From a virus (Duplodnaviria; Heunggongvirae; Uroviricota; Caudoviricetes), in the IMG/VR virus record IMGVR_UViG_3300032167_000002, positions 152,286-216,285 of that record: a DNA stretch of 64,000 bases; one strand, given 5' to 3'. Position numbers and translations under genes: made by a program. Below the pieces are notes generated by a model. It saw nothing but the letters and a program-made list of their open reading frames with translations, was not told the DNA's origin and ran no database searches. Numbering within the stretch: position 1 is the first letter of the stretch; every line of letters begins with the position of its first letter. Positions 3,708-53,891 of the stretch are shown here, piece by piece.

Positions 3708-5699
3708 TTACTCGATTCCAAAAGTCTGAATGAAGTCAGATTCTGACAAGATTGGAATCCCCAATGACTTGGCAGTCATGTTCTTAGAGGAAGTGGAATT
3801 CACATCATTGTTAATGAGGAAATTTGTGTTCTTAGAAACAGAACCAGTTACCTTTCCTCCAAGAGCCTCAATTCGTGCCTTGATTTCATCACGGTTCTTG
3901 AAATGAGTGAGTTTTCCAGTAATTACAAAAGTTTTTCCAGTTAAACTCTCGCCGACCGGGGCGGGAGCGACTTCAGGTGCATTAAAGTGAATATAATGGT
4001 CAGCAAGTAGTTTTGCTTCGGCATAATTAAAGCTAACTAAACTATTATGCATTTCACCACCGAAATTAGGAAGAGTGTAGAAAGCGAAACCACCTTCCGC
4101 TGCCTCGACAAACTTTTCCCAAGTTTCAAAGTGCTTTGCCAATTCTTTCGATGCCGTTGAGCCAATCAACGGAATACCGAGGGCCGCAATGAACTGATGT
4201 AGTTCACAATTTGCGCCAGTATTAATAGCGTTCAGAACCTTCTCGACGGATTTGGCTCCAAATCCAGGCTTCTGGACCCATTCACTTCTACGAATGGAAA
4301 GTTCAAAAATGTCAGTAAAATCATTGACCCAACCCCAATCAATCAGTTTCTCTAAAGTTGCCTTTGAGATACCCTTCATATCAAGACCTTTCTTACCGCA
4401 GAAGTGGTCCAGACGATTGATTAGTTTACCAGGACAAGTTGGAGAGACACAGGTCAGATTCATAGAGTCATTCAACTTACTATACTTGACCTCACCGCCG
4501 CACACAGGACAACAATTGGGGCGTTCAAACCAAGGATAATCATACTGAGGTAAATCCTCGGGTTCTTCCGCAGACGCAATCTGAGGAATAATCATATTAG
4601 CCTTAAAGACGTCCACCTTTTGGCCTTTATAACCCCAACCATGTAAAGTTTCATTTAGAATACTTACATTGTGTAAGCTAGCTCTTTCTACGGTCGAACC
4701 ATCTACGTCGATTGGTTCAAAGACAGCAACGGGAGTAAGGACACCGGTTCTACCCATCGTCCATTCAATATCCAACAAGCTAGTCTGGTAAGTTTCATCA
4801 TAGAATTTATATGCCAGAGCATTTTTGAAATGATGCGTTGTTTCTCCAAGAGAACGACCATAAGCACAATCATTAAACTTAATAACTACACCATCAATTG
4901 GATAACTATATCCTTGAGCCATTTGAGTCACTTGCTCAATAAACATATCCATTTCAACCTCAGTATCATCTGCGTAATAAGCAGGACCAGTCGCATATGG
5001 AACTATAGTAAATCCAAAAGGTACAAGATAATTAAGTTTTTGGCTAAGTTTGTACTCGGTACCATCATCAAACATCATTGGAGTGAGAACATCCCACGCA
5101 ACAAATGTAAGATTGCGGCTTGCACATTCTTTGGAGTCTAAAAGACGAATACTGCCTGCGGCGAAATTTCTAGGGTTCTTATATTCTGAACTGAATTTTT
5201 CAAAATCAGTATAGGTGCAAATGATTTCTCCATCAATAACCAATTCATCCATATAAGGAATTTTACTTGGAATTGAAGGAAGAACTCTTGCATTATGCAG
5301 GATATCTTCACCGACAAGACCATTTCCCCTAGTCTCCGCAGAAACTAATTCTCCGTTGCGGTAAGTAAGAGAACAAGTTAAACCGTCCATCTTACACATA
5401 GCCAAGAAGTCCTTTTTACCTACAAAAGCAGAAACTTCATCAACGGATTTAGTTTTTTCAAGAGATAACATCTTATGAGAATGTTCAACTTTTTTCAAAG
5501 CATTTACAACTTCATAAGAAATAGATTGAGTAGGAGAATTAGATAAAATCAAACCTGTTTCTTTTTCTAATTCTTGTAACTCAAAATATTTATTATCCCA
5601 TTCTTCGTCCGTAATTTTTGGATTACCTTCATCGTATGCTTTTGTACATTCGTTAAGGTATCTTACAAGAAACTTGATTTTATCATAGATACTATCCAT
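3708..5699 (-). CDS. ligA: NAD+-dependent DNA ligase
   Basis: 663 aa. KMDG adenylation motif (AMCKMDGLTCSLTYRNG), Zn-finger cysteines CCPVCGG...C, C-terminal BRCT (GKTFVITGKL). SD AAGGAG before the ATG. Confidence 0.9.
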   Translation of the reverse strand: MDSIYDKIKFLVRYLNECTKAYDEGNPKITDEEWDNKYFELQELEKETGLILSNSPTQSISYEVVNALKKVEHSHKMLSLEKTKSVDEVSAFVGKKDFLAMCKMDGLTCSLTYRNGELVSAETRGNGLVGEDILHNARVLPSIPSKIPYMDELVIDGEIICTYTDFEKFSSEYKNPRNFAAGSIRLLDSKECASRNLTFVAWDVLTPMMFDDGTEYKLSQKLNYLVPFGFTIVPYATGPAYYADDTEVEMDMFIEQVTQMAQGYSYPIDGVVIKFNDCAYGRSLGETTHHFKNALAYKFYDETYQTSLLDIEWTMGRTGVLTPVAVFEPIDVDGSTVERASLHNVSILNETLHGWGYKGQKVDVFKANMIIPQIASAEEPEDLPQYDYPWFERPNCCPVCGGEVKYSKLNDSMNLTCVSPTCPGKLINRLDHFCGKKGLDMKGISKATLEKLIDWGWVNDFTDIFELSIRRSEWVQKPGFGAKSVEKVLNAINTGANCELHQFIAALGIPLIGSTASKELAKHFETWEKFVEAAEGGFAFYTLPNFGGEMHNSLVSFNYAEAKLLADHYIHFNAPEVAPAPVGESLTGKTFVITGKLTHFKNRDEIKARIEALGGKVTGSVSKNTNFLINNDVNSTSSKNMTAKSLGIPILSESDFIQTFGIE

Positions 5700-21182: not shown

Positions 21183-21213
21183 ATATTATATCATATTTTT
21201 TTATAAAAATCAA
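21183..21213 (-). promoter_or_regulatory. Stereotyped sigma-70 promoter
   Basis: + strand atatattatatcatatttttttataaaaatcaa. Confidence 0.6.
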
Positions 21214-21978
21214 TTAAGACAAATAGGGGTCAGAGCAGAAGACCTCTTCATCCCAAGTATCCAGGTTCAACAGAACACAGTAGCCAGTAAAGACGGCGCC
21301 GCAATCAATGCAGCATTTCTTTCCACCAGCGTACCAAAGTGCACCAGGTTCGATTTCTCCCATGCGGCAAGCAGGGTCAATATCTTCCAAAAGATATGGA
21401 ATTGGAGTGTGTCCGTGAACAATAATCGCCTTTTGGAAGATTTCATCTTCGGGCCAGGGGTCAAGGAAATGGTCTCTATCCCAAATTAAATCTTCAGTCC
21501 ACACCCAGCGCATTTGACCTTGGTGGTCAGTTTGTGGAGTGAAACCAGCATGAGAGAGATATACAGTTTCACCTTGTGTGTTGACATATGTTGCCTTATC
21601 AGGCAGTCCAGCAAGGCGGCCTTTCCAATTTTGCCAATCAGGCTCTTCCATAGCTTCCTCAAAGGTTTTCTTACCTCCGTTGCTACGAAGCAAAGCAAAT
21701 GCAGAGCCATAGCCACGGCCCATTGCTTTAACTAGCATATCTTCATGGTTGCCTTTTAAATAAATAAATTGGGGGTCATCAAGAATGGTTTTGATGCATT
21801 CCCAAGGGTGCGGTCCGCGGTCACCAGCGTCACCAAGGAAGTAAACTACATCTTCTGGCTGAAGCATATCCTTAATAGCCTTATAGAAGTGTAGCATACC
21901 ATGTAAATCAGAACAAGCATATACAGCCATTATTTTACCTCCTTCTCTGGAATTAATACGAACATATAGCCCGTACAT
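21214..21978 (-). CDS. Calcineurin-like metallophosphoesterase (paralog 2)
   Basis: ACSDLHGM...FLGDAGDRGP...GNHE motifs. Confidence 0.65.
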   Translation of the reverse strand: MYGLYVRINSREGGKIMAVYACSDLHGMLHFYKAIKDMLQPEDVVYFLGDAGDRGPHPWECIKTILDDPQFIYLKGNHEDMLVKAMGRGYGSAFALLRSNGGKKTFEEAMEEPDWQNWKGRLAGLPDKATYVNTQGETVYLSHAGFTPQTDHQGQMRWVWTEDLIWDRDHFLDPWPEDEIFQKAIIVHGHTPIPYLLEDIDPACRMGEIEPGALWYAGGKKCCIDCGAVFTGYCVLLNLDTWDEEVFCSDPYLS

Positions 21979-22151
21979 TTAGGAGGTTCACCCTCCTTAA
22001 TCATTTTTGCAAGACTTTTTTCAAGGGATTCGATAGTTGTTTGCATATATTCATGACCCTTTTCGTAGCCTGTAATCGCTGCGAAAGGAGGGTTATTAAT
22101 TGGCATTTTCATACCATCTATAAAAATATATCCCTTAATTCCAAACATCAA
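21930..22151 (-). CDS. Hypothetical protein
   Basis: 73-aa track ORF. Confidence 0.25.
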   Translation of the reverse strand: MMFGIKGYIFIDGMKMPINNPPFAAITGYEKGHEYMQTTIESLEKSLAKMIKEGEPPKCTGYMFVLIPEKEVK

Positions 22152-22726
22152 CCTTTCGCCTCGCTTAAATAGTTTCTAATTTCTTCTCGATAATTATAAA
22201 CATATCGAGGAACAAGTTTTTCAATCATCGGGTCGCTATTAGGCATCTGAAAAGCCTGGCGAACCAATGTTGCACTAATACCTTCGAATCTATCAAGAAA
22301 TTTAAATCGAAGTAACCATCTTTCATCTTGGGCAAACCAACCGAGCATAATACGGGGGTCATCACTGTAATAGATAGTCATATCAGAATCTTTGGTTTTA
22401 CTAAACATCTTGATATAAAGATATCGGCCCCATGCGTGGCTATTGTCAGCTTCATCAGTCATATCAGCTAAAGGAAAAATATGAATATATTTCATTTGTT
22501 CTGTTGTAAAATGTTCGTGAAGAGAGCCTTCCAAAAGCATGATACGAAAATCAATGGGTAGAGGATTGCGGACAGTGCCGCTCTTATCGGCAGAGCCAAC
22601 GAAGATATAAAGGTCGCAATTATTTGCGGCGCAATCTTCATAAGCCTTTTGAACCATATTTAAATGTCCTCTATGAAAAGGCTGTGCTCTAAATAAAATA
22701 ACACCTGTCATAATAATTCTCCTCAC
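22148..22726 (-). CDS. Nicotinamide-nucleotide adenylyltransferase (NMNAT, NatV/NadM-like)
   Basis: Nucleotidyltransferase HxGH motif in FRAQPFHRGHLNMV. 192 aa. Confidence 0.65.
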   Translation of the reverse strand: MRRIIMTGVILFRAQPFHRGHLNMVQKAYEDCAANNCDLYIFVGSADKSGTVRNPLPIDFRIMLLEGSLHEHFTTEQMKYIHIFPLADMTDEADNSHAWGRYLYIKMFSKTKDSDMTIYYSDDPRIMLGWFAQDERWLLRFKFLDRFEGISATLVRQAFQMPNSDPMIEKLVPRYVYNYREEIRNYLSEAKG

Positions 22727-23040
22727 TTAATCACTAAATCTTTTGCTTCTTCTTGAGTGATACCGAAATAGTCTTCAAAAATTTCCATATCACCAGGGTC
22801 ACAAGCCCCAGAACAGATACATTTTCCCTCATGCAACACCCAATACCACATACCATCGGGGTATTTAATTAAATGCTCTATTAAAGCAAAAAAATCTTTA
22901 ATATTGGGACAACCATATACAGCAACTAAACCCTCACCGGTAAATTCATCTGTGAAATAAATATAAGGGTCTGCTACGACACGGTCTCGAATTTTATCTG
23001 TAAAAGCTACAATGATAGGAGCATCAATATTCACAGTCAT
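22723..23040 (-). CDS. Hypothetical protein
   Basis: 105-aa track ORF. Confidence 0.25.
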   Translation of the reverse strand: MTVNIDAPIIVAFTDKIRDRVVADPYIYFTDEFTGEGLVAVYGCPNIKDFFALIEHLIKYPDGMWYWVLHEGKCICSGACDPGDMEIFEDYFGITQEEAKDLVIK

Positions 23041-23112
23041 TTATATCAATTCCTTTCTTAACTTTATATATATATTATAACATATTTTTTAATAAAAATC
23101 AAAGAGGAAGCA

Positions 23113-23640
23113 TTAAGCTTCCTCTAAGATATGGAGAATGTCGTCAACAATAGCATCATAACCAACTATATCGCCAGTGGAAATTGTATAAGGGAGTTGC
23201 TCCTTATTGAGCAATTCCAAAATTTCATCAGCAATCTTATCAGATTCTTCTTCAGTCTGGAATCGTCCTACTGGATTATATTCTTTGGTGCGAACTAGGA
23301 AATAGTTTTTACAATTGTAGCTGTTCATTACTTTGCGGACGACATTATTAAAATCTTCGCCCAAAACGGGGTCATGGTTATAAACTAAAGATAGAAGTAA
23401 GGGAGAGTCAGTAATAACAACATCAACTTTATCAGCACAACGGCTGATGCGGAAATATTGCTTACCAAAGATGTAAGCCTGATTATTGAAAACAGCTTTA
23501 CTCTCTTCCCATACCTTATCCTTAGCGAACTCAGTTACCAGCTCTGCGTTAATACCACGCATTTTGAGCTGGCTGAAGATATATGCGGCACCAGTAGACT
23601 TACCAGTACCAGGAGAACCAAAAAGATTAACTAAAATCAT
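23113..23640 (-). CDS. P-loop NTPase/kinase (possibly a nucleoside or nicotinamide-riboside kinase)
   Basis: Walker A FGSPGTGKST. Lies within the NAD-metabolism cluster. Confidence 0.4.
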   Translation of the reverse strand: MILVNLFGSPGTGKSTGAAYIFSQLKMRGINAELVTEFAKDKVWEESKAVFNNQAYIFGKQYFRISRCADKVDVVITDSPLLLSLVYNHDPVLGEDFNNVVRKVMNSYNCKNYFLVRTKEYNPVGRFQTEEESDKIADEILELLNKEQLPYTISTGDIVGYDAIVDDILHILEEA

Positions 23641-24156
23641 TTATTTTCCTCCATATGATAATTTGAAATCAGTTTTTTCTGTTTTTTTATAAGTAGATGC
23701 ATTTTTAGCATAGGTACTTTCTGCTTCGCGCAATTCTTGGCGCACATCCATTAAAATTTTACCAAGAATATTTTTACCTTCGATTTCTGCACACTTGGGG
23801 CAAACACAATTACCCCAAGTATTATCATGCCAAGTATTGCCTTCTACTAATTCTTCATCACCAGTGTCTAAAAGTTTTTGTTTTAAATCGGGGTCAGAAA
23901 ATTTGTATTTCAAACCATCATGCATTACACTAATCTTAATACGCTCCCAGTCAGGGCGCAAAGAGCAGTGTCGCCCCATTCGCTTTGCCTGTCCAGGTGT
24001 TTTTGCTTTTGCAATAGCTTTAAATTCACTTTCACTCTTGGTTTTCCAAGCTTGGAACCAGTGTTCCACAGTAGGAAAAGTTACACCATCTACAGTAAAA
24101 GGAGAGGGGAAAAAGTTGCTTAGGAAAGCGTACTTTCCATCAAACATCGCAATCAT
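23641..24156 (-). CDS. NADAR (YbiA-like) domain protein
   Basis: FLSNFFPSPFTVDGVTFPTVEHWFQAWK, typical of DUF1768/NADAR. Confidence 0.65.
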   Translation of the reverse strand: MIAMFDGKYAFLSNFFPSPFTVDGVTFPTVEHWFQAWKTKSESEFKAIAKAKTPGQAKRMGRHCSLRPDWERIKISVMHDGLKYKFSDPDLKQKLLDTGDEELVEGNTWHDNTWGNCVCPKCAEIEGKNILGKILMDVRQELREAESTYAKNASTYKKTEKTDFKLSYGGK

Positions 24157-24168
24157 AGCGATACCTCC

Positions 24169-24975
24169 TTAGAAACTAAATGGACTTTCTTCTTTGTTGC
24201 TGTTTTCGTGCCAAGCACGAGTCTTGATACGAATATAGGGCATGCAAATATCTCTTTTATGGAGATTTCTGGTGTGGCGCTCTTCAATCTTGCGAAGAGT
24301 CTCATAGTCGGGAAGTACTTCATCCAAAAGATAAGCATCCAGTACATCATAAGGAATACCAGTGTTATCTTCATCGGTCTTACCACTCATACCATCACCA
24401 GGTGCCTTATGAACCAGGTGTGCGGGCAACTCATCCAGATTGTCGCCAATCTCAATGACCTCACGGACGCAGTAATCCTTTAAGATAGCGAAGTCGCCAG
24501 CCAGGTCACCATACTTGGTAGTGTAGCCGATATACAGTTCGGATTTATTGCCAGTATTGATTACTCGACCGCCCATATCTGCGGCAACTGCGTAAAGAGT
24601 TGCCATACGGATACGAGCAGGCGTATTTGTATTAACTGCGGGATTTTTATAGGCGTCACCCACCATTCCCGCAAACATCTTGGTGATAGGGCCAATATTG
24701 TAGGCTCTATAGGGAATATGAAGAATGTTGCATACTTCCACAGAGTCCTTAATATCCTTCTGGTCACCATCGGGCATCAGCACACCAAAAACTCTTTCGG
24801 GACCCAGTGCTCGGACAAGCAGGGCGGCCGCAATCGTGGAATCCTTACCACCGGAAATACCAATAACTGCCTTGGTATTCTCATTACCATTCTTGACAAA
24901 ATATTTCTTAATTTCATCAACAATGTGCTGGATTTCCTCTTCAACATCAATTACTTTGAAATCAAAATCACCCAT
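24169..24975 (-). CDS. nadE: NH3-dependent NAD+ synthetase
   Basis: PP-loop GISGGKDST. 268 aa. Confidence 0.8.
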   Translation of the reverse strand: MGDFDFKVIDVEEEIQHIVDEIKKYFVKNGNENTKAVIGISGGKDSTIAAALLVRALGPERVFGVLMPDGDQKDIKDSVEVCNILHIPYRAYNIGPITKMFAGMVGDAYKNPAVNTNTPARIRMATLYAVAADMGGRVINTGNKSELYIGYTTKYGDLAGDFAILKDYCVREVIEIGDNLDELPAHLVHKAPGDGMSGKTDEDNTGIPYDVLDAYLLDEVLPDYETLRKIEERHTRNLHKRDICMPYIRIKTRAWHENSNKEESPFSF

Positions 24976-24977
24976 AT

Positions 24978-25484
24978 TTACGCCTCCAGTTTGTAAATAT
25001 ATACATCATAGTCCTCAGAAAGGGCTTCCCAAATCATCGTTTTAATTACTTCCCAATTTGCGCCACCAAGGCCGCAGCCAATATGGTCAGGAAAGCCAAT
25101 TTTACTGCCGTGGGGTACCTGGTCCCTAATCTTACCAAGACAAGACCAGAAGCCATCATAAGAAGTATATCTCTTACCATCATAGCCATAATATTGCTGT
25201 GCAAACATATTTATCACAGTCTTGTCTACATCAACAGGAACTAACTGAATCTCGCCCAGAAGGGTATCAGTCCAGTCGGGTCCGTTTTCCATCCCGCCGC
25301 ACATTTGATAGATTTCTTCTTCTCTCTTGGTGCAGAGGGCAATATAATCTTCATATACTCGATGCCATCTTGTTTTAATGTTCTTGGCGATGCCAGAGGC
25401 CATGCGCCCCTGGCAATTCACCTGATGGCAGTAATAATCCAATTTCGCTTCGAGCATATCACCTTTAATAAAGTGAATACTCAT
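24978..25484 (-). CDS. Macro domain protein (ADP-ribose binding/hydrolase)
   Basis: HQVNCQGRMASGIAKNI...GCGLGGANW motifs. Confidence 0.7.
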   Translation of the reverse strand: MSIHFIKGDMLEAKLDYYCHQVNCQGRMASGIAKNIKTRWHRVYEDYIALCTKREEEIYQMCGGMENGPDWTDTLLGEIQLVPVDVDKTVINMFAQQYYGYDGKRYTSYDGFWSCLGKIRDQVPHGSKIGFPDHIGCGLGGANWEVIKTMIWEALSEDYDVYIYKLEA

Positions 25485-27031
25485 TACGCAATCTCCGGAT
25501 ACAGACGAGCACGAATTTCGTGGAAATTTTCAATATTCTTCAGAAAACCATCTGCGAAGGAGGTGCGAAGCAGGGTTTCATCATCGGGAACCCATTCGCC
25601 ATAGCCGTCAATGCATACAAACTCATCCTTGTCGGGGTGAATCTGAACCGCGCAGCAACCTTTATGGGACTTCTTCAGTCCGCCCTCGTCAGTCTTGGGG
25701 TCCTTATAGATAGGAACTTCCTTGCCGCCAAAGATACCGTGAGTAGCCTTCATTGCCATGCCCCAGGTATCACGAGTCAGAACAGTGAACTTATTGTCGG
25801 GGCTGAACAGAGCGTGGAAGCAGAAAGCACCAACACCGAAGACCACATTGGTAGCCGCGAAGCCCAGCTGAGCCAGAGTTTCGTAAATTTCACGAACCTT
25901 ATTCAGAGTGCAGCCGTCACCATAAATCAGACCAATATGGGGGTCCAGAACCTTATAGCCAGCTTCATTGATGGTGCCACCAAACTCATCCCACAGTTTC
26001 TGGATAGTGCCGATGGTAATGGAAACCATGTCGCCAGAGTCAGGACGGATAAGCAGCTTGCCATTGTGAGCCAAAATTTCAGCCTTGCAGGCAGGAATGA
26101 TATTGTCTACCATATTCCAGTAGTCATAGGTATCAGATACCATAGAGAAACTGGTATTGGGGTAAATTTCAGTCAGCATACGCTTCACAAAAGTGATTTC
26201 ATCGCCGTCGATTGCGAAATTCGCAGCCATAACAGAGTGTTCAGTGGAAACGGCACCCAGACCCAGCTTATGCTCGGCGCACTGTGCGTCGTAATAGTCG
26301 TCCAGGTAGGGTAGCGCAGGAATGGTAGAGGTCTTATTGAAAGACAGGAGCCAAGAAGCGGAGCAACGAGTTGCGTCTTCCAGGCAGCTCATACCACGGA
26401 AACCGAAGTCAGCCATTGCCATAAAGGGGTCGGCGCCGGGGGCAGTCATATCGTAATACTTCTTTGCAATCTTGTGGTATTCCCAACCAACGGTCGCATA
26501 TGCACACATAGGCCACACTTCAGTCTGGAGCAGGCACTCAACCCACTGAACCAGCCATGCGAAACGAGGGTGAGTATTTCTCATCTCAACGATGGGAACA
26601 CCCATATTGACAACAGTGCCTTCGGGCAAGGCGCGGATTTCCAGGGGCAGATAACCCAGCTCATGCAGTTCAACGATGCGATTACGAGCGACATTGTTGA
26701 TACCCAGGTGAGCATCAATATAATGGTCATACTCATACATCACCCAGTCCAGAGGAGTGGCGAAGAAGCTGTCGAAGCCTTCCTTCATATCAGTGAGGAA
26801 AGGATGAACGCCCCAAACGACCATCTTGGGGAAATTCTCATTCATAGCCTTTCGAGGAGTCAGGTAAGAAGCCAGAAACTCCTGATTGTCAGGATACATC
26901 AGGGGGTGGCACTGCTTGTAAGAGTCGCTGTACAGCATAATCATTCTACGAAAATCCATATTATCAATTTCCTTTCTTTTTTCTCGCAATGCGGATTCGT
27001 TTACTTTCCATCTTGTTAGGAATATGCTCAC
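25484..27031 (-). CDS. nadV: Nicotinamide phosphoribosyltransferase (NadV/NAMPT)
   Basis: 515 aa with NAMPT-like GFRGMS and GDG motifs. Confidence 0.75.
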   Translation of the reverse strand: MSIFLTRWKVNESALREKRKEIDNMDFRRMIMLYSDSYKQCHPLMYPDNQEFLASYLTPRKAMNENFPKMVVWGVHPFLTDMKEGFDSFFATPLDWVMYEYDHYIDAHLGINNVARNRIVELHELGYLPLEIRALPEGTVVNMGVPIVEMRNTHPRFAWLVQWVECLLQTEVWPMCAYATVGWEYHKIAKKYYDMTAPGADPFMAMADFGFRGMSCLEDATRCSASWLLSFNKTSTIPALPYLDDYYDAQCAEHKLGLGAVSTEHSVMAANFAIDGDEITFVKRMLTEIYPNTSFSMVSDTYDYWNMVDNIIPACKAEILAHNGKLLIRPDSGDMVSITIGTIQKLWDEFGGTINEAGYKVLDPHIGLIYGDGCTLNKVREIYETLAQLGFAATNVVFGVGAFCFHALFSPDNKFTVLTRDTWGMAMKATHGIFGGKEVPIYKDPKTDEGGLKKSHKGCCAVQIHPDKDEFVCIDGYGEWVPDDETLLRTSFADGFLKNIENFHEIRARLYPEIA

Positions 27032-27212
27032 GGGTCGCCAGTTCAGCTTTTACACGAGCCTGGTAGGCTCTCTTGGCGGAATAATCTGCATCTTCCCAGT
27101 CATAATCGCCCCAGCGATATGTATGTCGCAGATGTGCCAGAAGCTGGCGAGTTTTCAGATTTTTCATCTGCTCTTCGGAGAGGATTCCGCAGTCTCTTTC
27201 AAAGTTACTCAT
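26964..27212 (-). CDS. Hypothetical protein
   Basis: 82-aa track ORF. Confidence 0.25.
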   Translation of the reverse strand: MSNFERDCGILSEEQMKNLKTRQLLAHLRHTYRWGDYDWEDADYSAKRAYQARVKAELATREHIPNKMESKRIRIARKKKGN

Positions 27213-27238
27213 TTAATCACTTCCTTTACTTTCTATAT

Positions 27239-27269
27239 ATATTATATCATATTTTTTTATAAAAATCAA
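27239..27269 (-). promoter_or_regulatory. Stereotyped sigma-70 promoter before NadV
   Basis: Same motif, placed directly after the terminator at 27273-27297. Confidence 0.6.
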
Positions 27270-27272
27270 AAA

Positions 27273-27297
27273 AGCCCCTTGAGTCTCAAGGGGCTTT
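27273..27297 (-). terminator. Terminator hairpin AGCCCCTTGAGTCTCAAGGGGCT
   Basis: Minus-strand stem-loop followed by a T run, placed directly before the promoter. Confidence 0.6.
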
Positions 27298-27300
27298 TAC

Positions 27301-27702
27301 TTATTCCACTCTATCTTCATATAAGGTGAGGCCGCATTCTCCAGATTCGGGGAACCACTCGCAAATAGAAGTGATTTTACCATCATAATCAGTGAAAATA
27401 ACATATTCCATTCCGTCACTCATTACGAGGAAATATGTCCAACAAGCGCACCTATACTCTTGGAGCATAAACACATCGGGAACGTGTGCAAGAACTGTGC
27501 CAATAAAATCTTCATTCCCAATTCTCGGACCAATCATATCCTCTAAAATGAGAATAGCGTTTTCGTTAAGGTCGGGAATGGATTCAACAATTGTTTCCGT
27601 AGACGATGGGGTTTCTTCATAAGGGGTGTCGCAAGCAATAAGTGATACACAAAGGCAAATTGCCAAAACAAAGCAAATAAAAAGTTTAATCGCTTTCTTC
27701 AT
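27301..27702 (-). CDS. Putative lipoprotein
   Basis: Signal peptide with lipobox: MKKAIKLFICFVLAICLCVSLIAC. Confidence 0.5.
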   Translation of the reverse strand: MKKAIKLFICFVLAICLCVSLIACDTPYEETPSSTETIVESIPDLNENAILILEDMIGPRIGNEDFIGTVLAHVPDVFMLQEYRCACWTYFLVMSDGMEYVIFTDYDGKITSICEWFPESGECGLTLYEDRVE

Positions 27703-28472
27703 TTCACTTCTCCTTCGGGAATTTCAATTAAATTGAAGACATCTTGAATATCTTCATGGAAGACCAGCTCAGCTCTGAAATCTGCTACTGTAGGGTCTCT
27801 GTTAATGACAACCAGATGACTATCATCGCAGTAGAATGGCAGGCTTGCGGCAGGTTGAACTACCAGGGAGCTACCAACCACAATCATCAGGTCGGCTTGA
27901 GCAGCTGCCACCTGGGCATTGCTCCAAGCAGGAAATGCCAGCCCTTCACCATACAGGACAATATCGGGTCGGATAGTGCCTTCGCCGCACAGAGGGCATT
28001 TAGGAATATCATTTAGATTATTGTAGTTTCCATCCAATACATCTTCTGGAATAAACAAGTCGTGACCACAATCCTGGCAATACCAACGACTCATAGTACC
28101 GTGGACAGCATATATCCTATCCATGCCAGTGTCTTCGTGTAAACCATCAATATTTTGTGTAATCACAGACACTTTTCTTGCTTCCTGCAGCTCAGAAATT
28201 CTTTGATGGGCGATGGTTGGCTTAGCTCCACGAAAATCCATTTTTTCACGCAGATACTCGAAAAAAGCCTGTTCGTGCTTCTGAAGGCAGGTGCTGCTCA
28301 GCATATATTCCGGACTCTTGCCTCCAATATACGGACTTGCGTACAGACCATCCGCACTGCGGAAATCCGGAATACCGGAGCCAGTTGAGATACCGGCTCC
28401 GGTAAAAAACACGATATGCCGAGCGTCCGCAATTATCTTATTTAGTTTCGCAATACGCTCATTAAAATCCAT
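27699..28472 (-). CDS. Sir2-family NAD+-dependent deacylase or ADP-ribosyltransferase (sirtuin)
   Basis: GAGISTGSGIPDFR, QNIDGLH, and Zn-ribbon CQDCG...CPLCG. Confidence 0.8.
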   Translation of the reverse strand: MDFNERIAKLNKIIADARHIVFFTGAGISTGSGIPDFRSADGLYASPYIGGKSPEYMLSSTCLQKHEQAFFEYLREKMDFRGAKPTIAHQRISELQEARKVSVITQNIDGLHEDTGMDRIYAVHGTMSRWYCQDCGHDLFIPEDVLDGNYNNLNDIPKCPLCGEGTIRPDIVLYGEGLAFPAWSNAQVAAAQADLMIVVGSSLVVQPAASLPFYCDDSHLVVINRDPTVADFRAELVFHEDIQDVFNLIEIPEGEVK

Positions 28473-28475
28473 ATC

Positions 28476-28994
28476 TTACTCTCCCATTTGTGCCTTGACG
28501 CAAGCATCGCCTGCAGCCATAGCTTCTTTCAGTGCCTCTTGGGCAACCTTCATATCGCAGCCCTCTTTCTTCAAGAAAGGCATCACATTCTTCATAATGA
28601 CACCCTTATTACCAGAGCAGATAGAAACTGCGTTACAAACTCCCCAGTAGTTAATCATCTTGACAATTTCATCCTTGTCGTCGATAACCTTAGGAGCATA
28701 CTCCAAAGCGATAGAGAGCTTCATCAGATATTCAGCCTTACGAGCCTTCAATTCTGCATCTCTCTTGGGGTCTGTTGCCCCATCGGGACAGGTATCGACC
28801 ATCTCTTGGACAGTCTTCTTATACTTCAACATCACTTCATCGACAAAAGCATCTGTGATTTCTACTCTCTTTTTACCAGAGGTAGCAGCTTTGTCGATTG
28901 TGGCGACCATATCAGCCAGAGTCAAACGTCTCAGCTTATCGCCGTTTTTCAAGGCAGTTGTCATATCTGCCTTAATAGACTCATACTTATTCAT
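28476..28994 (-). CDS. GatB/YqeY domain protein
   Basis: 172 aa resembling YqeY. Confidence 0.6.
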   Translation of the reverse strand: MNKYESIKADMTTALKNGDKLRRLTLADMVATIDKAATSGKKRVEITDAFVDEVMLKYKKTVQEMVDTCPDGATDPKRDAELKARKAEYLMKLSIALEYAPKVIDDKDEIVKMINYWGVCNAVSICSGNKGVIMKNVMPFLKKEGCDMKVAQEALKEAMAAGDACVKAQMGE

Positions 28995-29012
28995 TGGAGT
29001 CTACTCCTTTCT

Positions 29013-29840
29013 TTAATGATATACAGTAATCCATTCCTTCCAGTAAGGGTCATAACCTTCGTTGAATAACTCTTCGGGGAAAATGGACTTAGTGGTATAG
29101 ACATGGTCAACAAGACCATCAGTGCTGGCCATTTCACCCAAAATAATAGTCTTTTCGCAATGGGTGACATACAGACTTACGCTCTTGGCGCCAGCAGCCT
29201 TAAGAGCTTTAGCAGAATGGTAGAAAGTACCACCACGAGAACAGATATCGTCAACGATAAGAACATTCTTATCCTTAACTGCTTCGGCGTTGATAATATC
29301 CAGGCCCTGAATCTGACCGGTCTTCCAATCTCGCTTTTTCATTCCAAAAGCGTAAGGAATATCAAACCCACCAGAATAACGCTTCATAGCACCTTCATCG
29401 GGGAAGAAGAGTACATCAGCCTGAGCCTCAAAAATTGCATCCAGAACATAATTAGTAATGGGCATTTCTTCTACATTGTTCAGAAGGGCCAGGCTTACGT
29501 TGCTATGTGCGTCACGCACATGAACAACCTTGAAATTCAGAGAGTTGATAACTTCGCAGAAATACTTGAGAGTGAAAACATCTTCATCAGACTTCACTCG
29601 GTCCATGCGGGCATGGGGGATGTAAGGCATTTCCAGAACAACATCGCTGTAAGAATAGACGCGGTCCAGATGGCGCTTTACGCAAATCAAAGAGAAAAGC
29701 TCTGCATCATTTTCATAATACCACTCGACCAGAATATTACCGCGAGTGTCAAATTCATCCCCATTGGGGTCAAACTTCATCAACAGAGTGCCATCGGGGA
29801 ACTGACCCTGCTTAATTTCGACATTACCTACTTTAATCAT
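29013..29840 (-). CDS. Phosphoribosyltransferase-domain protein (PRPP-synthetase-like)
   Basis: PRTase motif VLIVDDICSRGGT. Confidence 0.55.
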   Translation of the reverse strand: MIKVGNVEIKQGQFPDGTLLMKFDPNGDEFDTRGNILVEWYYENDAELFSLICVKRHLDRVYSYSDVVLEMPYIPHARMDRVKSDEDVFTLKYFCEVINSLNFKVVHVRDAHSNVSLALLNNVEEMPITNYVLDAIFEAQADVLFFPDEGAMKRYSGGFDIPYAFGMKKRDWKTGQIQGLDIINAEAVKDKNVLIVDDICSRGGTFYHSAKALKAAGAKSVSLYVTHCEKTIILGEMASTDGLVDHVYTTKSIFPEELFNEGYDPYWKEWITVYH

Positions 29841-30129
29841 ACATTTTCCTCCATGTTTCTCCCATTCCGAGTTCTAAATCGGCACTTCCATTCCAACCGA
29901 ATACTCGGAAAGCTCGTAATTTGATATATGCTTTATATCTTTTGAAATTGCCCTCGCAGTATAGAAAAGCTGAAGGACAATATGGCAAATCTTCTTCTTT
30001 CAATTCTGAAAGCTGTTCACGCGACATTAAGCAGCTTTCTCGCAAAGAGTTTAGATGATGTTGACCTGGCACAGCTTCATCGCCTCCAGAGCAGTCTTGT
30101 GGCTCTCGGGGGTAACACAGGCGCAGCAA
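29833..30129 (-). CDS. Hypothetical protein
   Basis: 98-aa track ORF. Confidence 0.25.
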   Translation of the reverse strand: MLRLCYPREPQDCSGGDEAVPGQHHLNSLRESCLMSREQLSELKEEDLPYCPSAFLYCEGNFKRYKAYIKLRAFRVFGWNGSADLELGMGETWRKMYD

Positions 30130-30641
30130 TCAGCAATCACATTCACAGGAACCTCGGGCAGCGTAGCCTTAGCCAGAATGGCATTGGACATAACACAGAT
30201 TCCGGTACACAGACCCATCAGAGTAACCTCTTCAACACCCAGACGCTCATTGATATCGAACAAAATGTTCTGCAGTTCGACAGAGCCAAAAGTAGGCTTT
30301 TCAACCTTGATAGGGTTAATGTCGGTCATGGGGTAGACCTCATAAGCGTCGGCATAGGTGTCGATAACATTGATGTAAGCCTTGAACACTTCATCAACAA
30401 TGGAATGACCGGCAGTGCCCTTGATGCAATGACGAACCGGCAGATTTTTACCCTCCAGGGTATCCATGTAATTTTCGGGATGAGTATCCTTGGTGAAGAT
30501 AACCACAGTATCGGGAGCTGCCATCTGCTCAATGGTCTCTGCGACCAGCGGAACGATAGCCTGCGCCTCCTTGGTGCCCAGGGAACCATCAACGAAATCC
30601 TTCTGCATATCTACGACAATAAGAACTTTCATATAATTCAT
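30051..30641 (-). CDS. pncA: Isochorismatase-family nicotinamidase
   Basis: Cysteine-hydrolase motifs VVDMQKDF and GLCTGICV. Confidence 0.65.
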   Translation of the reverse strand: MNYMKVLIVVDMQKDFVDGSLGTKEAQAIVPLVAETIEQMAAPDTVVIFTKDTHPENYMDTLEGKNLPVRHCIKGTAGHSIVDEVFKAYINVIDTYADAYEVYPMTDINPIKVEKPTFGSVELQNILFDINERLGVEEVTLMGLCTGICVMSNAILAKATLPEVPVNVIADCCACVTPESHKTALEAMKLCQVNII

Positions 30642-30664: not shown

Positions 30665-30695
30665 ATATTATAACATATTTTTTTATAAAAATCAA
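30665..30695 (-). promoter_or_regulatory. Stereotyped sigma-70 promoter before pncA
   Basis: Same motif, placed directly after the terminator at 30700-30719. Confidence 0.6.
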
Positions 30696-42180: not shown

Positions 42181-42211
42181 ATATTATAACATATTTTTTT
42201 ATAAAAATCAA
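42181..42211 (-). promoter_or_regulatory. Stereotyped sigma-70 promoter
   Basis: Same motif, placed after the terminator at 42215-42237 (AGGGAGCCTTATTCAGGCTCCCT). Confidence 0.6.
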
Positions 42212-47630: not shown

Positions 47631-48821
47631 TTAAGTGCCGTGTCGATGATGATGACATTCAGTACAAAGCATTACTCCATTTGCAAGCTCAGTAGTGCCA
47701 CCTTGACGCCAAGACTGAATATGATGAGCATGCATATCAGCCATAGCAAATGACTGCCCGCAATCGGGACAAATACCGTTTTGTCTATTGTAGAGTAATT
47801 TACGCTGACTATCAGTAAATTTACGATGTGTCAGTAACTGCTCATTTTTAGTAATACAATACTCAACGATAGCAGCTTTCGTACAGGTCAATTCCTTAGC
47901 AAGCTTAGCGCTGAATAATTCCTTGAGTAGATCAGCAATTTCGCTGGGATCTAACTCCTCATCTTTGTACTTGTTATATAGCCAGCCCCATTCAACAGTT
48001 TTAAAGCCGTCATCATAATATTCAAAATTGGCTTTAGTCCATGCAACTACTTCATTGAAATAATTCCACAAATCAGAAGCATCTGCATCATTCATATGCT
48101 GTTCCATGTACGCGCAAATTGCTTCATCACTCTTATCATTGACTCGCCAATAGATTACTTGCTCCAAAAGCTCTTGTCGGTTTGCATCTTTTTTACTGTA
48201 TTTCTTAAACAAAACCTCTGCAGGGCAGGAACCATTTTTACTTGCTCGACTAAAATATCTCTTAGCGTCTGTTAGCCACACGCTAGTGTGATTGGCATTG
48301 CGGATTTCTTGTGCAGACAATTGTGCACCAGCGATATTGATACGATTAAACCAATCTAACCGCTCTCTCTTGGTGCCTTTGCACAGATAAACCTCAATTT
48401 CATAATCAAGCAATGCTTCAGCTAAATCTGGATCATACTGTTCAAGGATGTCAAAATATGTTTCTTTGCCATTTCTCAACCAGTTTGCTTTAAAACTGGT
48501 CTGAGTTGTATCACCAGAAATAAAATCACACAAACTGATAGTTCTTTGCTGACCATCGAGACAATCATAAGTACCATCTTCGTTATCTACCCAATACATA
48601 ATGCTGAGAGGGAGATTTGCCAATGCAGTATCAATTACTGCATTGGCCTGTTCACGGTTATATACGAAAGAACGCTGGAATTCTGGACGGACACACAATT
48701 TACCGCCATAGGCATAAACGCCACGCTCTTCATTGGTATCGGAATTATTTACATAGCCGGCGCACAAATCACGCACTTTAACAAAAATGCGTTCAGTTTT
48801 CATATTATTCCGCTGAAACAT
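47631..48821 (-). CDS. DUF262 (ParB-like DGQQR) plus HNH nuclease fusion (GmrSD-like)
   Basis: N-terminal ...YDCLDGQQRTISL.... C-terminal HNH CPDCG...HAHHI...CTECHHHRH. Confidence 0.65.
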   Translation of the reverse strand: MFQRNNMKTERIFVKVRDLCAGYVNNSDTNEERGVYAYGGKLCVRPEFQRSFVYNREQANAVIDTALANLPLSIMYWVDNEDGTYDCLDGQQRTISLCDFISGDTTQTSFKANWLRNGKETYFDILEQYDPDLAEALLDYEIEVYLCKGTKRERLDWFNRINIAGAQLSAQEIRNANHTSVWLTDAKRYFSRASKNGSCPAEVLFKKYSKKDANRQELLEQVIYWRVNDKSDEAICAYMEQHMNDADASDLWNYFNEVVAWTKANFEYYDDGFKTVEWGWLYNKYKDEELDPSEIADLLKELFSAKLAKELTCTKAAIVEYCITKNEQLLTHRKFTDSQRKLLYNRQNGICPDCGQSFAMADMHAHHIQSWRQGGTTELANGVMLCTECHHHRHGT

Positions 48822-53741: not shown

Positions 53742-53816
53742 TGGCGGGGGGCCTGGGATTCGAACCCAGCCACAACGGTTTTAGAGACCGCCGCGCTACC
53801 GCTACGCTAACCCCCA
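53742..53816 (-). tRNA. Amber suppressor tRNA, anticodon CTA, tRNA-Gln-like (U1.C72 open pair, G2-C71, G3-C70, G10, G73)
   Basis: TGGGGGT TA GCGT AGCGGTA GCGC G GCGGT CTCTAAA ACCGT TGTGG CTGGG TTCGAAT CCCAG GCCCCCC G CCA. + strand tag at 53782-84 inside tttagag. The acceptor end resembles tRNA-Gln(CTG) at 59382..59457. Confidence 0.8.
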
Positions 53817-53891
53817 TGGCACCGGCGCTCTGACTCGAACAGAGATATGCGGGGTTAGAGCCCGCCGTCCTAGCCATTGAACGACACCGGA
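53817..53891 (-). tRNA. Second suppressor tRNA, anticodon CTA, with Trp-like D and T arms (G73, U1.U72)
   Basis: TCCGGTG TC GTTC AATGGCTA GGAC G GCGGG CTCTAAC CCCGC ATAT CTCTG TTCGAGT CAGAG CGCCGGT G CCA. + strand tag at 53856-58. Abuts the first suppressor with no spacer. Confidence 0.7.

Follow-up and report, generated by a model that had tools for sequence, protein, structure and literature searches.

A phage island of NAD+ and ADP-ribose genes joins an Adps/Namat-type pair to a nicotinamidase and an NAD+ synthetase

Depletion of NAD+ is among the commonest bacterial strategies against phages, and the NARP1 pathway is the commonest known phage answer. In NARP1, Adps, an enzyme resembling phosphoribosyl pyrophosphate (PRPP) synthetase (PRPS), pyrophosphorylates ADP-ribose (ADPR), and Namat, a Nampt-like transferase, joins the ADPR-pyrophosphate (ADPR-PP) to nicotinamide, giving NAD+; the pathway defeats Thoeris, DSR1/2, SIR2-HerA and SEFIR (Osterman et al., bioRxiv 10.1101/2024.02.11.579819). 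NARP1-AP is NARP1 plus a macro-domain ADPR-1''-phosphate phosphatase, Adpp. The macro gene of Vibrio phage Gary encodes such a phosphatase and lets NARP1 cope with RES-domain NAD+ phosphorylases (bioRxiv 10.64898/2026.01.28.702374). Both are anti-defence pathways proven by experiment. Here we describe a relative of these pathways in a 64,000-nucleotide stretch of phage DNA, hereafter the window (positions 152,286 to 216,285 of IMG/VR record IMGVR_UViG_3300032167_000002). It holds a contiguous island of ten NAD+/ADP-ribose genes that follow one another head to tail on the minus strand (22148-30641). An Adps/Namat-type pair lies in this island together with PncA, a nicotinamidase, and NadE, an NAD+ synthetase, and the transferase lacks the aspartate that binds nicotinamide. 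We lean, by a modest degree, towards reading the island from these features as a deamidated ADPR route composed of PncA, Adps, a nicotinate-using transferase and NadE.

An earlier note on this DNA, made from the sequence alone, had proposed a NAD+/ADP-ribose salvage island here. That proposal was borne out: all of the named genes are present on the minus strand, and profile searches upheld all ten domain calls, weakly for YqeY and for the nicotinamide mononucleotide (NMN) adenylyltransferase (NMNAT). Two of the more specific identifications have to be revised. The gene read as a PRPP-synthetase-like phosphoribosyltransferase is, judged by model score, best phage relatives and alignment, an Adps-type partner rather than a generic phosphoribosyltransferase. 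It scores 83.6 bits against TIGR01251, the model for true ribose-phosphate diphosphokinase, under the 113-bit cut-off. Its best phage relatives (38-40% identity) are the Prs-like genes of NARP1 operons, which stand beside Nampt-like genes, and it aligns with the Adps proteins of K354, SA3 and Felixounavirus through the catalytic motifs ARxDR, DPHS and DDIC. The predicted reaction is ADP-ribose plus ATP to ADPR-PP. The gene read as NadV is not a KVP40-type Nampt but falls inside the Namat radiation. Among solved structures its product matches SpbetaL1 Namat best (8e-100; human Nampt, 4e-49), and it is about 37% identical to phage Namats (1e-90) versus about 28% to the Nampts of T4-like phages and NARP2 (1e-30 to 1e-35). 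In a neighbour-joining tree with Nampts as the outgroup, all sequences with Ala, Ser or Val at the position of the lost aspartate form one clade nested in the Asp-type Namats. PncB models give 18-23 bits against cut-offs of 297-503 bits, and the PncB of Bacillus phage G has no match to the window transferase. By these placements the two genes are the Adps/Namat pair of NARP1. The transferase reading frame spans 25484-27031 and opens at a GTG (27031) that overlaps an upstream frame of 82 residues; since homologues align from Met25, the likely start is the ATG at 26959. A sister-phage transferase has 581 residues, compared with 491 here.

The pyridine pocket of the transferase is remodelled. Ala207, Lys233, Ser235 and Ser262 replace His, Gly, Asp and Ala, and the GTDT of SpbetaL1 Namat is aligned with KTST, so that Ser235 corresponds to Namat Asp215. 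That aspartate hydrogen-bonds nicotinamide in the crystal structure from which the residue roles are taken (PMC12774641), and mutagenesis of the equivalent Asp219 in human Nampt identified it as a determinant of substrate specificity (PMC7096376). Representatives for comparison were drawn from a search of 1.84 billion proteins. Among the best 150, the Asp215 position holds 108 Asp, 30 Ala, 17 Ser, 1 Val and 1 Glu, with one fragment lacking the position; counted by group, all 105 Asp-type representatives have Asp there, and all 48 of the Ala/Ser clade have Ala or Ser. The four columns that best discriminate the groups over the entire protein are all in or beside the pyridine pocket. The His before the stacking Phe, present in 105/105 Asp-type representatives, becomes Ser, Gly, Cys or Ala in the clade; the Ala242 column is Ser in 46 of the 48 clade members, and the Gly213 column is Lys or Asn in 36. 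The catalytic core Phe, Arg and His are kept in the window transferase, and none of the solved structures compared has this remodelled pocket. The adenine clamp, the motif that defines Namat, reads GAFCFH-ALFSPDNKFT-VLTRD here: it retains the position-3 aromatic and the TRD, with a 10-residue insertion between them. Insertions of 8-12 residues at this site occur in most of the Ala/Ser clade, while its basal Ala-type members have the intact motif. Several Namat homologues (P0037, P0039, P0135 and the one at 6233-7978 of L324) carry an intein-like insertion of about 300 residues exactly within the clamp motif, with C...SHN boundaries.

Linkage of the transferase to other genes follows the state of the pocket. 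Namat-family loci were gathered from viral contigs, metagenomes, deposited phages and bacterial genomes, and their neighbours were scored with profiles made from the island's own proteins. Of 314 viral, deposited-phage and metagenome loci, the counts below take in those with 5 kb or more of flank on each side (138 Ala/Ser-type, 62 Asp/Glu-type); 80 loci from bacterial genomes were scored apart. PncA and NadE are each neighbours in 137/138 Ala/Ser-type and 0/62 Asp/Glu-type loci. This near-absolute linkage is mostly direct adjacency and stands at 20/20 versus 0/19 for the two genes together with clustering at 70% identity. All 138 Ala/Ser-type loci have Adps no more than 10 kb from the transferase. 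The macro gene is found in 108/138 and 17/62, and NADAR in 57/138 and 18/62, while NMNAT (33/138), YqeY (10/138) and the sirtuin (9/138) each have 0/62 on the Asp/Glu side. The association with PncA and NadE extends to distant branches, including that of Phass-1, whose transferase is 31% identical and has an intact clamp motif. A first scan of viral contigs aimed at the basal Ala-type branch gave Asp-type loci only, which were used as extra controls; the branch was later found in metagenomes. Its loci have the order Adps-PncA-transferase-NadE, a canonical adenine clamp and PncA adjacent. The arrangement in the window is not a chance one, because its complete gene order is repeated in sister phage contigs of 82-200 kb and the four-gene core recurs in hundreds of loci.

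The pattern also occurs on bacterial chromosomes. One genome per bacterial species was scanned, giving the 80 bacterial loci (L328-L407), and a tight pncA-adps-transferase-nadE operon was found in at least 62 species, mostly Lachnospiraceae, Ruminococcus and Oscillospiraceae. An NrtR-like gene lies within 4 kb of the operon in 56/80. NrtR is a Nudix-related repressor of NAD genes whose signal is ADP-ribose, and it is a known controller of prs-nadV operons (PMC2330246). In human-gut Lachnospiraceae and Ruminococcaceae, current annotations name these genes "nicotinate/nicotinamide phosphoribosyltransferase" and "ribose-phosphate pyrophosphokinase". The operon of Pseudoruminococcus massiliensis (L348, 8614-14306) has asd, dapA and dapB as its neighbours and thus counts as a housekeeping recycling operon in that species. 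Overall, the chromosomal pncA-adps-transferase-nadE-nrtR cluster of many gut Clostridia looks like an unannotated operon for NAD recycling that responds to ADP-ribose. Some of the bacterial loci carry a long (about 650 residues) glutamine-dependent NadE. The viral versions of the island lack NrtR and are under phage promoters. The Ser-type branch, which includes the window, was found in phage contexts. One of these is a prophage-like region on a 791-kb scaffold of Lachnospiraceae bacterium A4 (L335), where the transferase is 57% identical and the neighbours are a DnaB helicase, AAA_24, a faint baseplate match and an IS605 TnpB. This island among phage-like genes hints at Lachnospiraceae as hosts of the phage lineage.

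We propose that the island is an early-expressed phage module that would keep NAD+ available by rebuilding it from the fragments of NAD+ cleavage. The macro-domain enzyme would first turn ADPR-1''-phosphate, and possibly O-acyl-ADP-ribose, into ADP-ribose, from which the Adps-like kinase would make ADPR-PP. PncA would deamidate nicotinamide to nicotinate, the remodelled transferase would join nicotinate to ADPR-PP to give nicotinate adenine dinucleotide (NaAD), and NadE would amidate NaAD to NAD+. The accessory NMNAT could adenylylate NMN or nicotinate mononucleotide (NaMN) and so widen the inputs, and NADAR and the sirtuin may act on, or generate, ADP-ribose derivatives. Deamidation is a point absent from the earlier note, and PncA together with NadE would imply it. 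The transferase most simply uses nicotinate, because the amide-binding aspartate is lost, PncA and NadE are always present in the lineage, and NadE acts only on the nicotinate dinucleotide. The Adps-type partner, the linkage to the macro/Adpp gene and the presence of NrtR beside the bacterial operon all point to ADP-ribose as the origin of the other substrate. Extending this to the whole group, we give an even chance to the Ala/Ser-type enzymes being a new nicotinate:ADPR-pyrophosphate transferase ("deamidated NARP1"), NrtR-controlled in gut Clostridia and captured and expanded by their large phages against NAD+-cleaving immunity.

Several points weigh against the deamidated route. Because the Ala/Ser state arose once, the perfect association with PncA and NadE counts as a single event kept over deep divergence and gene shuffling, and not as many independent ones. 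At least two Ala-type loci (L245, L247) have PncA without NadE in the available flank. The insertion that breaks the clamp in the window makes use of ADPR-PP less certain than it is for the basal members. What the phage would gain by deamidation is not obvious, and, as the bacterial operon sits among housekeeping genes, the module may be ordinary NAD recycling that phages have borrowed.

This last thought can be taken as an explanation of the purpose of the island that is compatible with any mechanism: a phage would have copied a host NrtR-regulated operon as general metabolic support, for its own ligase among others. The spread of the operon over so many bacterial species and its setting in P. 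massiliensis fit this, as does the LigA-type ligase of the window, and since the phage encodes LigA, it directly needs NAD+ itself. However, the phage versions have shed NrtR (in 243 viral loci the sole exception is one Nudix match in phage G) and have acquired neighbours of the kind usual in counter-defence regions (macro, NADAR and RNA-repair genes), and their characterised relatives act only once NAD+ is cleaved. We regard pure metabolic support as possible, if rather doubtful. The idea in the earlier note that the island counters NAD+-depleting defences stands on firm ground for the closest characterised relatives, NARP1 and NARP1-AP, which are established counter-measures, and would apply to the island itself by analogy.

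As the leading alternative mechanism, a different chemistry could be assembled from the same genes. The PRPS-like enzyme would make PRPP, the Nampt-family enzyme would make NaMN from it, NMNAT or host NadD would make NaAD, and NadE would finish; this is a Preiss-Handler route with a non-orthologous transferase, to which ADP-ribose is no substrate. PncA and NadE catalyse the first and last Preiss-Handler steps, the island has no PncB, and Bacillus phage G is a case of a phage carrying the full set. The disrupted adenine clamp agrees with this, as do the confinement of NMNAT to Ala/Ser-type loci and the ability of SpbetaL1 Namat still to use PRPP in vitro. Yet NMNAT is absent from about three quarters of those loci, and the PRPS-like protein scores below the cut-off for ribose-phosphate diphosphokinase and is grouped with Adps partners. 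The first clamp aromatic is kept and the clamp of basal members is intact. The macro/Adpp gene and an ADP-ribose-responsive NrtR would be sensible only if ADP-ribose feeds the pathway. For these reasons we consider the PRPP route unlikely.

Less probable again is a canonical NARP1-AP acting on nicotinamide, with PncA and NadE as independent additions that boost deamidated salvage by the host and with pocket changes that are neutral or tune affinity. The architecture of Adps, macro and Namat does equal that of published NARP1-AP, and the catalytic core is conserved. This does not account for an aspartate invariant in the Asp-type and replaced throughout the clade along with three more pocket positions, nor for PncA and NadE being almost always present and usually direct neighbours, and a nicotinamidase in the same operon would consume the transferase's own substrate. 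Finally, although the island does contain the genes called for (NMNAT, Nampt-family, macro and sirtuin), a NARP2-like NadV plus NMNAT salvage with a SirTM-like writer-eraser pair is hardly credible, as the Nampt-family gene is in the Namat clade with its higher identity to Namats, and the sirtuin passes the CobB deacylase equivalog, stands apart from the macro gene and rarely co-occurs with it.

The deamidated route also finds some favour in the transcription of the island. The window is a portion of a large phage genome with nearly all genes on the minus strand, and it encodes 24 tRNAs (two with an amber-suppressor anticodon), gyrase, a sigma factor, NAD-dependent DNA ligase, RNA ligase and a multi-domain endolysin. 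The relatives nearest to the phage among deposited genomes come from human-gut metagenomes, Phass-1 of the "code 15 clade" being one of them; megablast of the island gave no match to deposited phages. A 29-bp phage promoter, TTGATTTTTATAAAAAAATATG(A/T)TATAAT, with an extended -10 element, recurs in near-identical copies across the whole early region, often directly behind a hairpin terminator. Exact matches to TTGATT-N17-TATAAT number 19 on the minus strand, where 0.02 are expected. Three copies, each just 3' of a hairpin terminator, split the island into three transcription units (Table 1). The first consists of PncA, Adps-like, YqeY, sirtuin and lipoprotein genes; the second of an 82-residue ORF (open reading frame), transferase, macro, NadE, NADAR and kinase; and the third of a 105-residue ORF, NMNAT and a 73-residue ORF. 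These early-type promoters before each unit would count in favour of an early-expressed module.

Table 1. Positions of the island genes, their promoters and other features of the window
Feature	Coordinates	Strand	Matches and remarks
Frame interrupted by TAG codons	2024-3046	-	341 codons
NAD-dependent DNA ligase	3708-5699	-	LigA-type adenylation, OB, HhH and BRCT domains
SPFH/Band 7 flotillin-like protein	17479-18987	-	502 aa
Metallophosphatase	19616-20203	-	flanks island; recurs beside it in relatives
AAA_33 kinase	20200-20745	-	flanks island; recurs beside it in relatives
Phage promoter copy	21185-21213	-	
Metallophosphatase	21214-21978	-	flanks island; recurs beside it in relatives
ORF, downstream edge of island	21930-22151	-	73 aa; no family match
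NMNAT, archaeal/NadM-type, nicotinamide/nicotinate mononucleotide adenylyltransferase	22148-22726	-	192 aa; weak in Pfam, 1.4e-5
ORF	22723-23040	-	105 aa; no family match
Start of unit 3	23074-23125	-	terminator 23125-23103; same phage promoter 23102-23074
P-loop kinase (AAA_28)	23113-23640	-	175 aa; AAA_28 1e-10
NADAR domain protein	23641-24156	-	171 aa; NADAR 1.8e-32; TIGR02464 108 bits, cut-off 73.7
NadE, NH3-dependent NAD+ synthetase	24169-24975	-	268 aa; NAD_synthase 1e-50
Macro-domain protein	24978-25484	-	168 aa; phrog_335 4e-32 (PHROG annotated phosphatase)
Namat-family transferase	25484-26959	-	491 aa from likely start; phrog_448 2e-147
Basic ORF	26964-27212	-	82 aa; kept as 82-aa ORF in sister phages
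Start of unit 2	27241-27298	-	terminator 27298-27270; same phage promoter 27269-27241
Lipoprotein-like ORF	27301-27702	-	133 aa; signal peptide and LIAC lipobox; no Pfam match
Sirtuin, CobB-type NAD-dependent protein deacylase	27699-28472	-	257 aa; CxxC...CxxC zinc ribbon; SIR2 9e-45
YqeY/GatB-like protein	28476-28994	-	172 aa; Pfam YqeY 27.0 bits, exactly the cut-off; phrog_1460 2e-9
Adps-like PRPS-family pyrophosphokinase	29013-29840	-	275 aa; Pribosyltran 4e-9; phrog_619 8e-76
PncA-type nicotinamidase	30051-30641	-	196 aa; Isochorismatase 3.6e-24
Start of unit 1	30667-30721	-	terminator 30721-30698; promoter TTGATTTTTATAAAAAAATATGTTATAAT 30695-30667
MVP-like protein	30734-33250	-	838 aa; MVP_shoulder 2e-23; Vault_3 1.4e-8
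RNA ligase	33993-35411	-	flanks island; recurs beside it in relatives
Phage promoter copy	36967-36995	-	
Phage promoter copy	42183-42211	-	
GmrSD_N and HNH protein	47631-48821	-	
Two tandem anticodon-CTA tRNAs	53742-53891	-	inside 24-tRNA array

The remaining island proteins vary in how closely they can be placed. The best solved relative of PncA is the nicotinamidase of P. horikoshii (2.9e-15), and the two align at the D/K/C triad and at the DxH...H metal site; NadE scores 169.6 bits against TIGR00552 (cut-off 63.65). The macro gene has no match in Pfam. It matches the DarG macro model at 2e-14, and its solved-structure matches include the DarG macrodomain (1.2e-6), Poa1p (1e-4) and TARG1. 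It is 33% identical (2e-21) to the macro gene within the Adps-phosphatase-Namat operon of Vibrio phage K354, which stood in for phage Gary, the tested source of Adpp; K354 has the same operon layout, and Gary was not among the matches listed. The macro protein is thus a candidate Adpp, and possibly also an O-acyl-ADPR deacylase, on a sequence that alone does not separate phosphatase activity from removal of ADP-ribose from DNA or protein. The suggestion that NADAR and macro domains erase or process ADP-ribose derivatives remains plausible. The pairing of macro and sirtuin in the manner of SirTM, also suggested earlier, does not hold: the sirtuin passes the NCBIfam protein deacylase model NF001752 (253.7 bits, cut-off 221), lies three genes off in another unit and is in few of the linked loci, while the macro gene travels with Namat. 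By its model match the sirtuin is an ordinary CobB-type deacylase and not SirTM. One may speculate that its products, nicotinamide and O-acyl-ADP-ribose, are in principle recyclable by the macro, PncA and NARP1-type genes.

The NMNAT assignment is upheld by its best NCBIfam and solved-structure relatives, which are archaeal/NadM-type NMNATs (TIGR01527 at 1.6e-13, under its cut-off; the M. jannaschii enzyme at 1.3e-8), and by its HRGH and ISATLVR motifs. The Metis system is reported to split NAD+ into NMN and AMP, and NMNAT would also permit repair after such cleavage. An AlphaFold2 model of the P-loop kinase (pLDDT 86) has its best fold matches in thymidylate and deoxynucleoside kinases at a template modelling (TM) score of about 0.6, which is generic. 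We considered whether this protein could be a NadR-type nicotinamide riboside kinase, as in a NARP3-like branch; this is not supported, there being no solved-structure match to NadR at E <= 1 and only generic fold matches. Four small ORFs of no assigned role are interspersed in the island, of 73, 105 and 82 residues plus the lipoprotein-like one. The last is kept as a 132-residue ORF in sister phages and has no visible tie to NAD chemistry.

Directly upstream of the island, a protein related to major vault protein (MVP) ends in a long coiled-coil-like C-terminal tail. An MVP-like protein is unusual in a phage. The gene recurs in the five closest viral relatives, and sister phages have an HD_4 protein there. 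A tie to the newly described vault-associated NADase domain was considered and set aside; the preprint on that domain does not mention MVP. The RNA ligase, AAA_33 kinase and metallophosphatases around the island look like a split polynucleotide kinase-phosphatase/ligase set for RNA repair. The flotillin-like gene is near the island in 11/23 representative loci. The phage also encodes a GmrSD_N and HNH protein, a type that usually acts in the restriction of modified DNA. TAG terminates 5 of the 69 ORFs in the window, and one further frame is open only if nine TAGs are read through. The two CTA tRNAs, the scarcity of TAG stops and this frame suggest code-15 recoding of some genes, as in Phass-1. 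Within the island itself, TAG recoding was ruled out, every ORF being intact under the standard code.

If the nicotinate route is correct, it adds an enzyme reaction to NAD biochemistry and explains a widespread unannotated operon of human-gut Lachnospiraceae and Ruminococcaceae. It would also mean that a gut-specific branch has escaped the published NARP surveys, which were based on genomes of cultured phages. Of 50,697 deposited phage records, just 7 contain a PncA homologue, each of them from a human gut sample, and this rarity is why surveys of cultured phages missed the variant. In the literature searched, no paper joins NARP1 with nicotinamidase or NadE, Namat with nicotinic acid occurs only as background, and a 2022 survey of viral NAD+/ADP-ribose systems makes no mention of PncA or NadE.

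The closest described systems each share part of this arrangement. For NARP3, defined by a bifunctional NadR-like nicotinamide riboside kinase/NMNAT plus a PnuC transporter, the island was the only part of the window scanned for PnuC, and it has no such gene. With NARP2, the KVP40 Nampt and NMNAT/Nudix pair, the island shares an NMNAT and a Nampt-family enzyme, but the latter is outside the KVP40 clade and the NMNAT is without the Nudix domain seen in KVP40 NatV. In published surveys, NARP1 and NARP2 never occurred together in one phage. From SirTM operons the island differs in that three genes and a terminator/promoter separate its CobB-type sirtuin from the macro gene. The Preiss-Handler island of Bacillus phage G (PncA-PncB-NadD-NadE; NC_023719) likewise has phage PncA and NadE bracketing a phosphoribosyltransferase and an adenylyltransferase. 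Phage G, however, has a PncB-type enzyme, a NadD-type adenylyltransferase and no PRPS-like gene, whereas the only such phosphoribosyltransferase accompanying PncA and NadE in the window is of the Nampt family and not PncB-type. In the bacterial prs-nadV-nrtR operons, NrtR, the repressor that responds to ADP-ribose, controls a second PRPS paralog together with a Nampt-family gene (Rodionov et al. 2008, PMC2330246). The Clostridial relatives of the island follow the same logic, but the 2008 operons were described without PncA or NadE, and the Clostridial pncA-adps-namat*-nadE-nrtR arrangement is not in that paper.

An NAD+ island as such is expected in a large phage, and NARP1, NARP1-AP, NARP2 and NARP3 are published; the nicotinate-linked core is apparently undescribed. 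As in NARP1-AP, a macro gene of the Poa1p/DarG/TARG1 type abuts the Namat gene. The order is Namat-macro and not Adps-macro-Namat, and the likeness, known from sequence alone, is as much to the DarG macro domain as to Poa1p. As in NARP1, a Nampt-like gene of the Namat radiation has a PRPS-like partner in a phage-encoded, probably early-expressed module that is expected to recycle ADP-ribose into the dinucleotide. The differences from NARP1 are that the two core genes are four genes apart in separate transcription units, that the transferase has Ser for Asp215 together with three more pocket changes and the clamp insertion, and that PncA and NadE are obligate companions of the pair.

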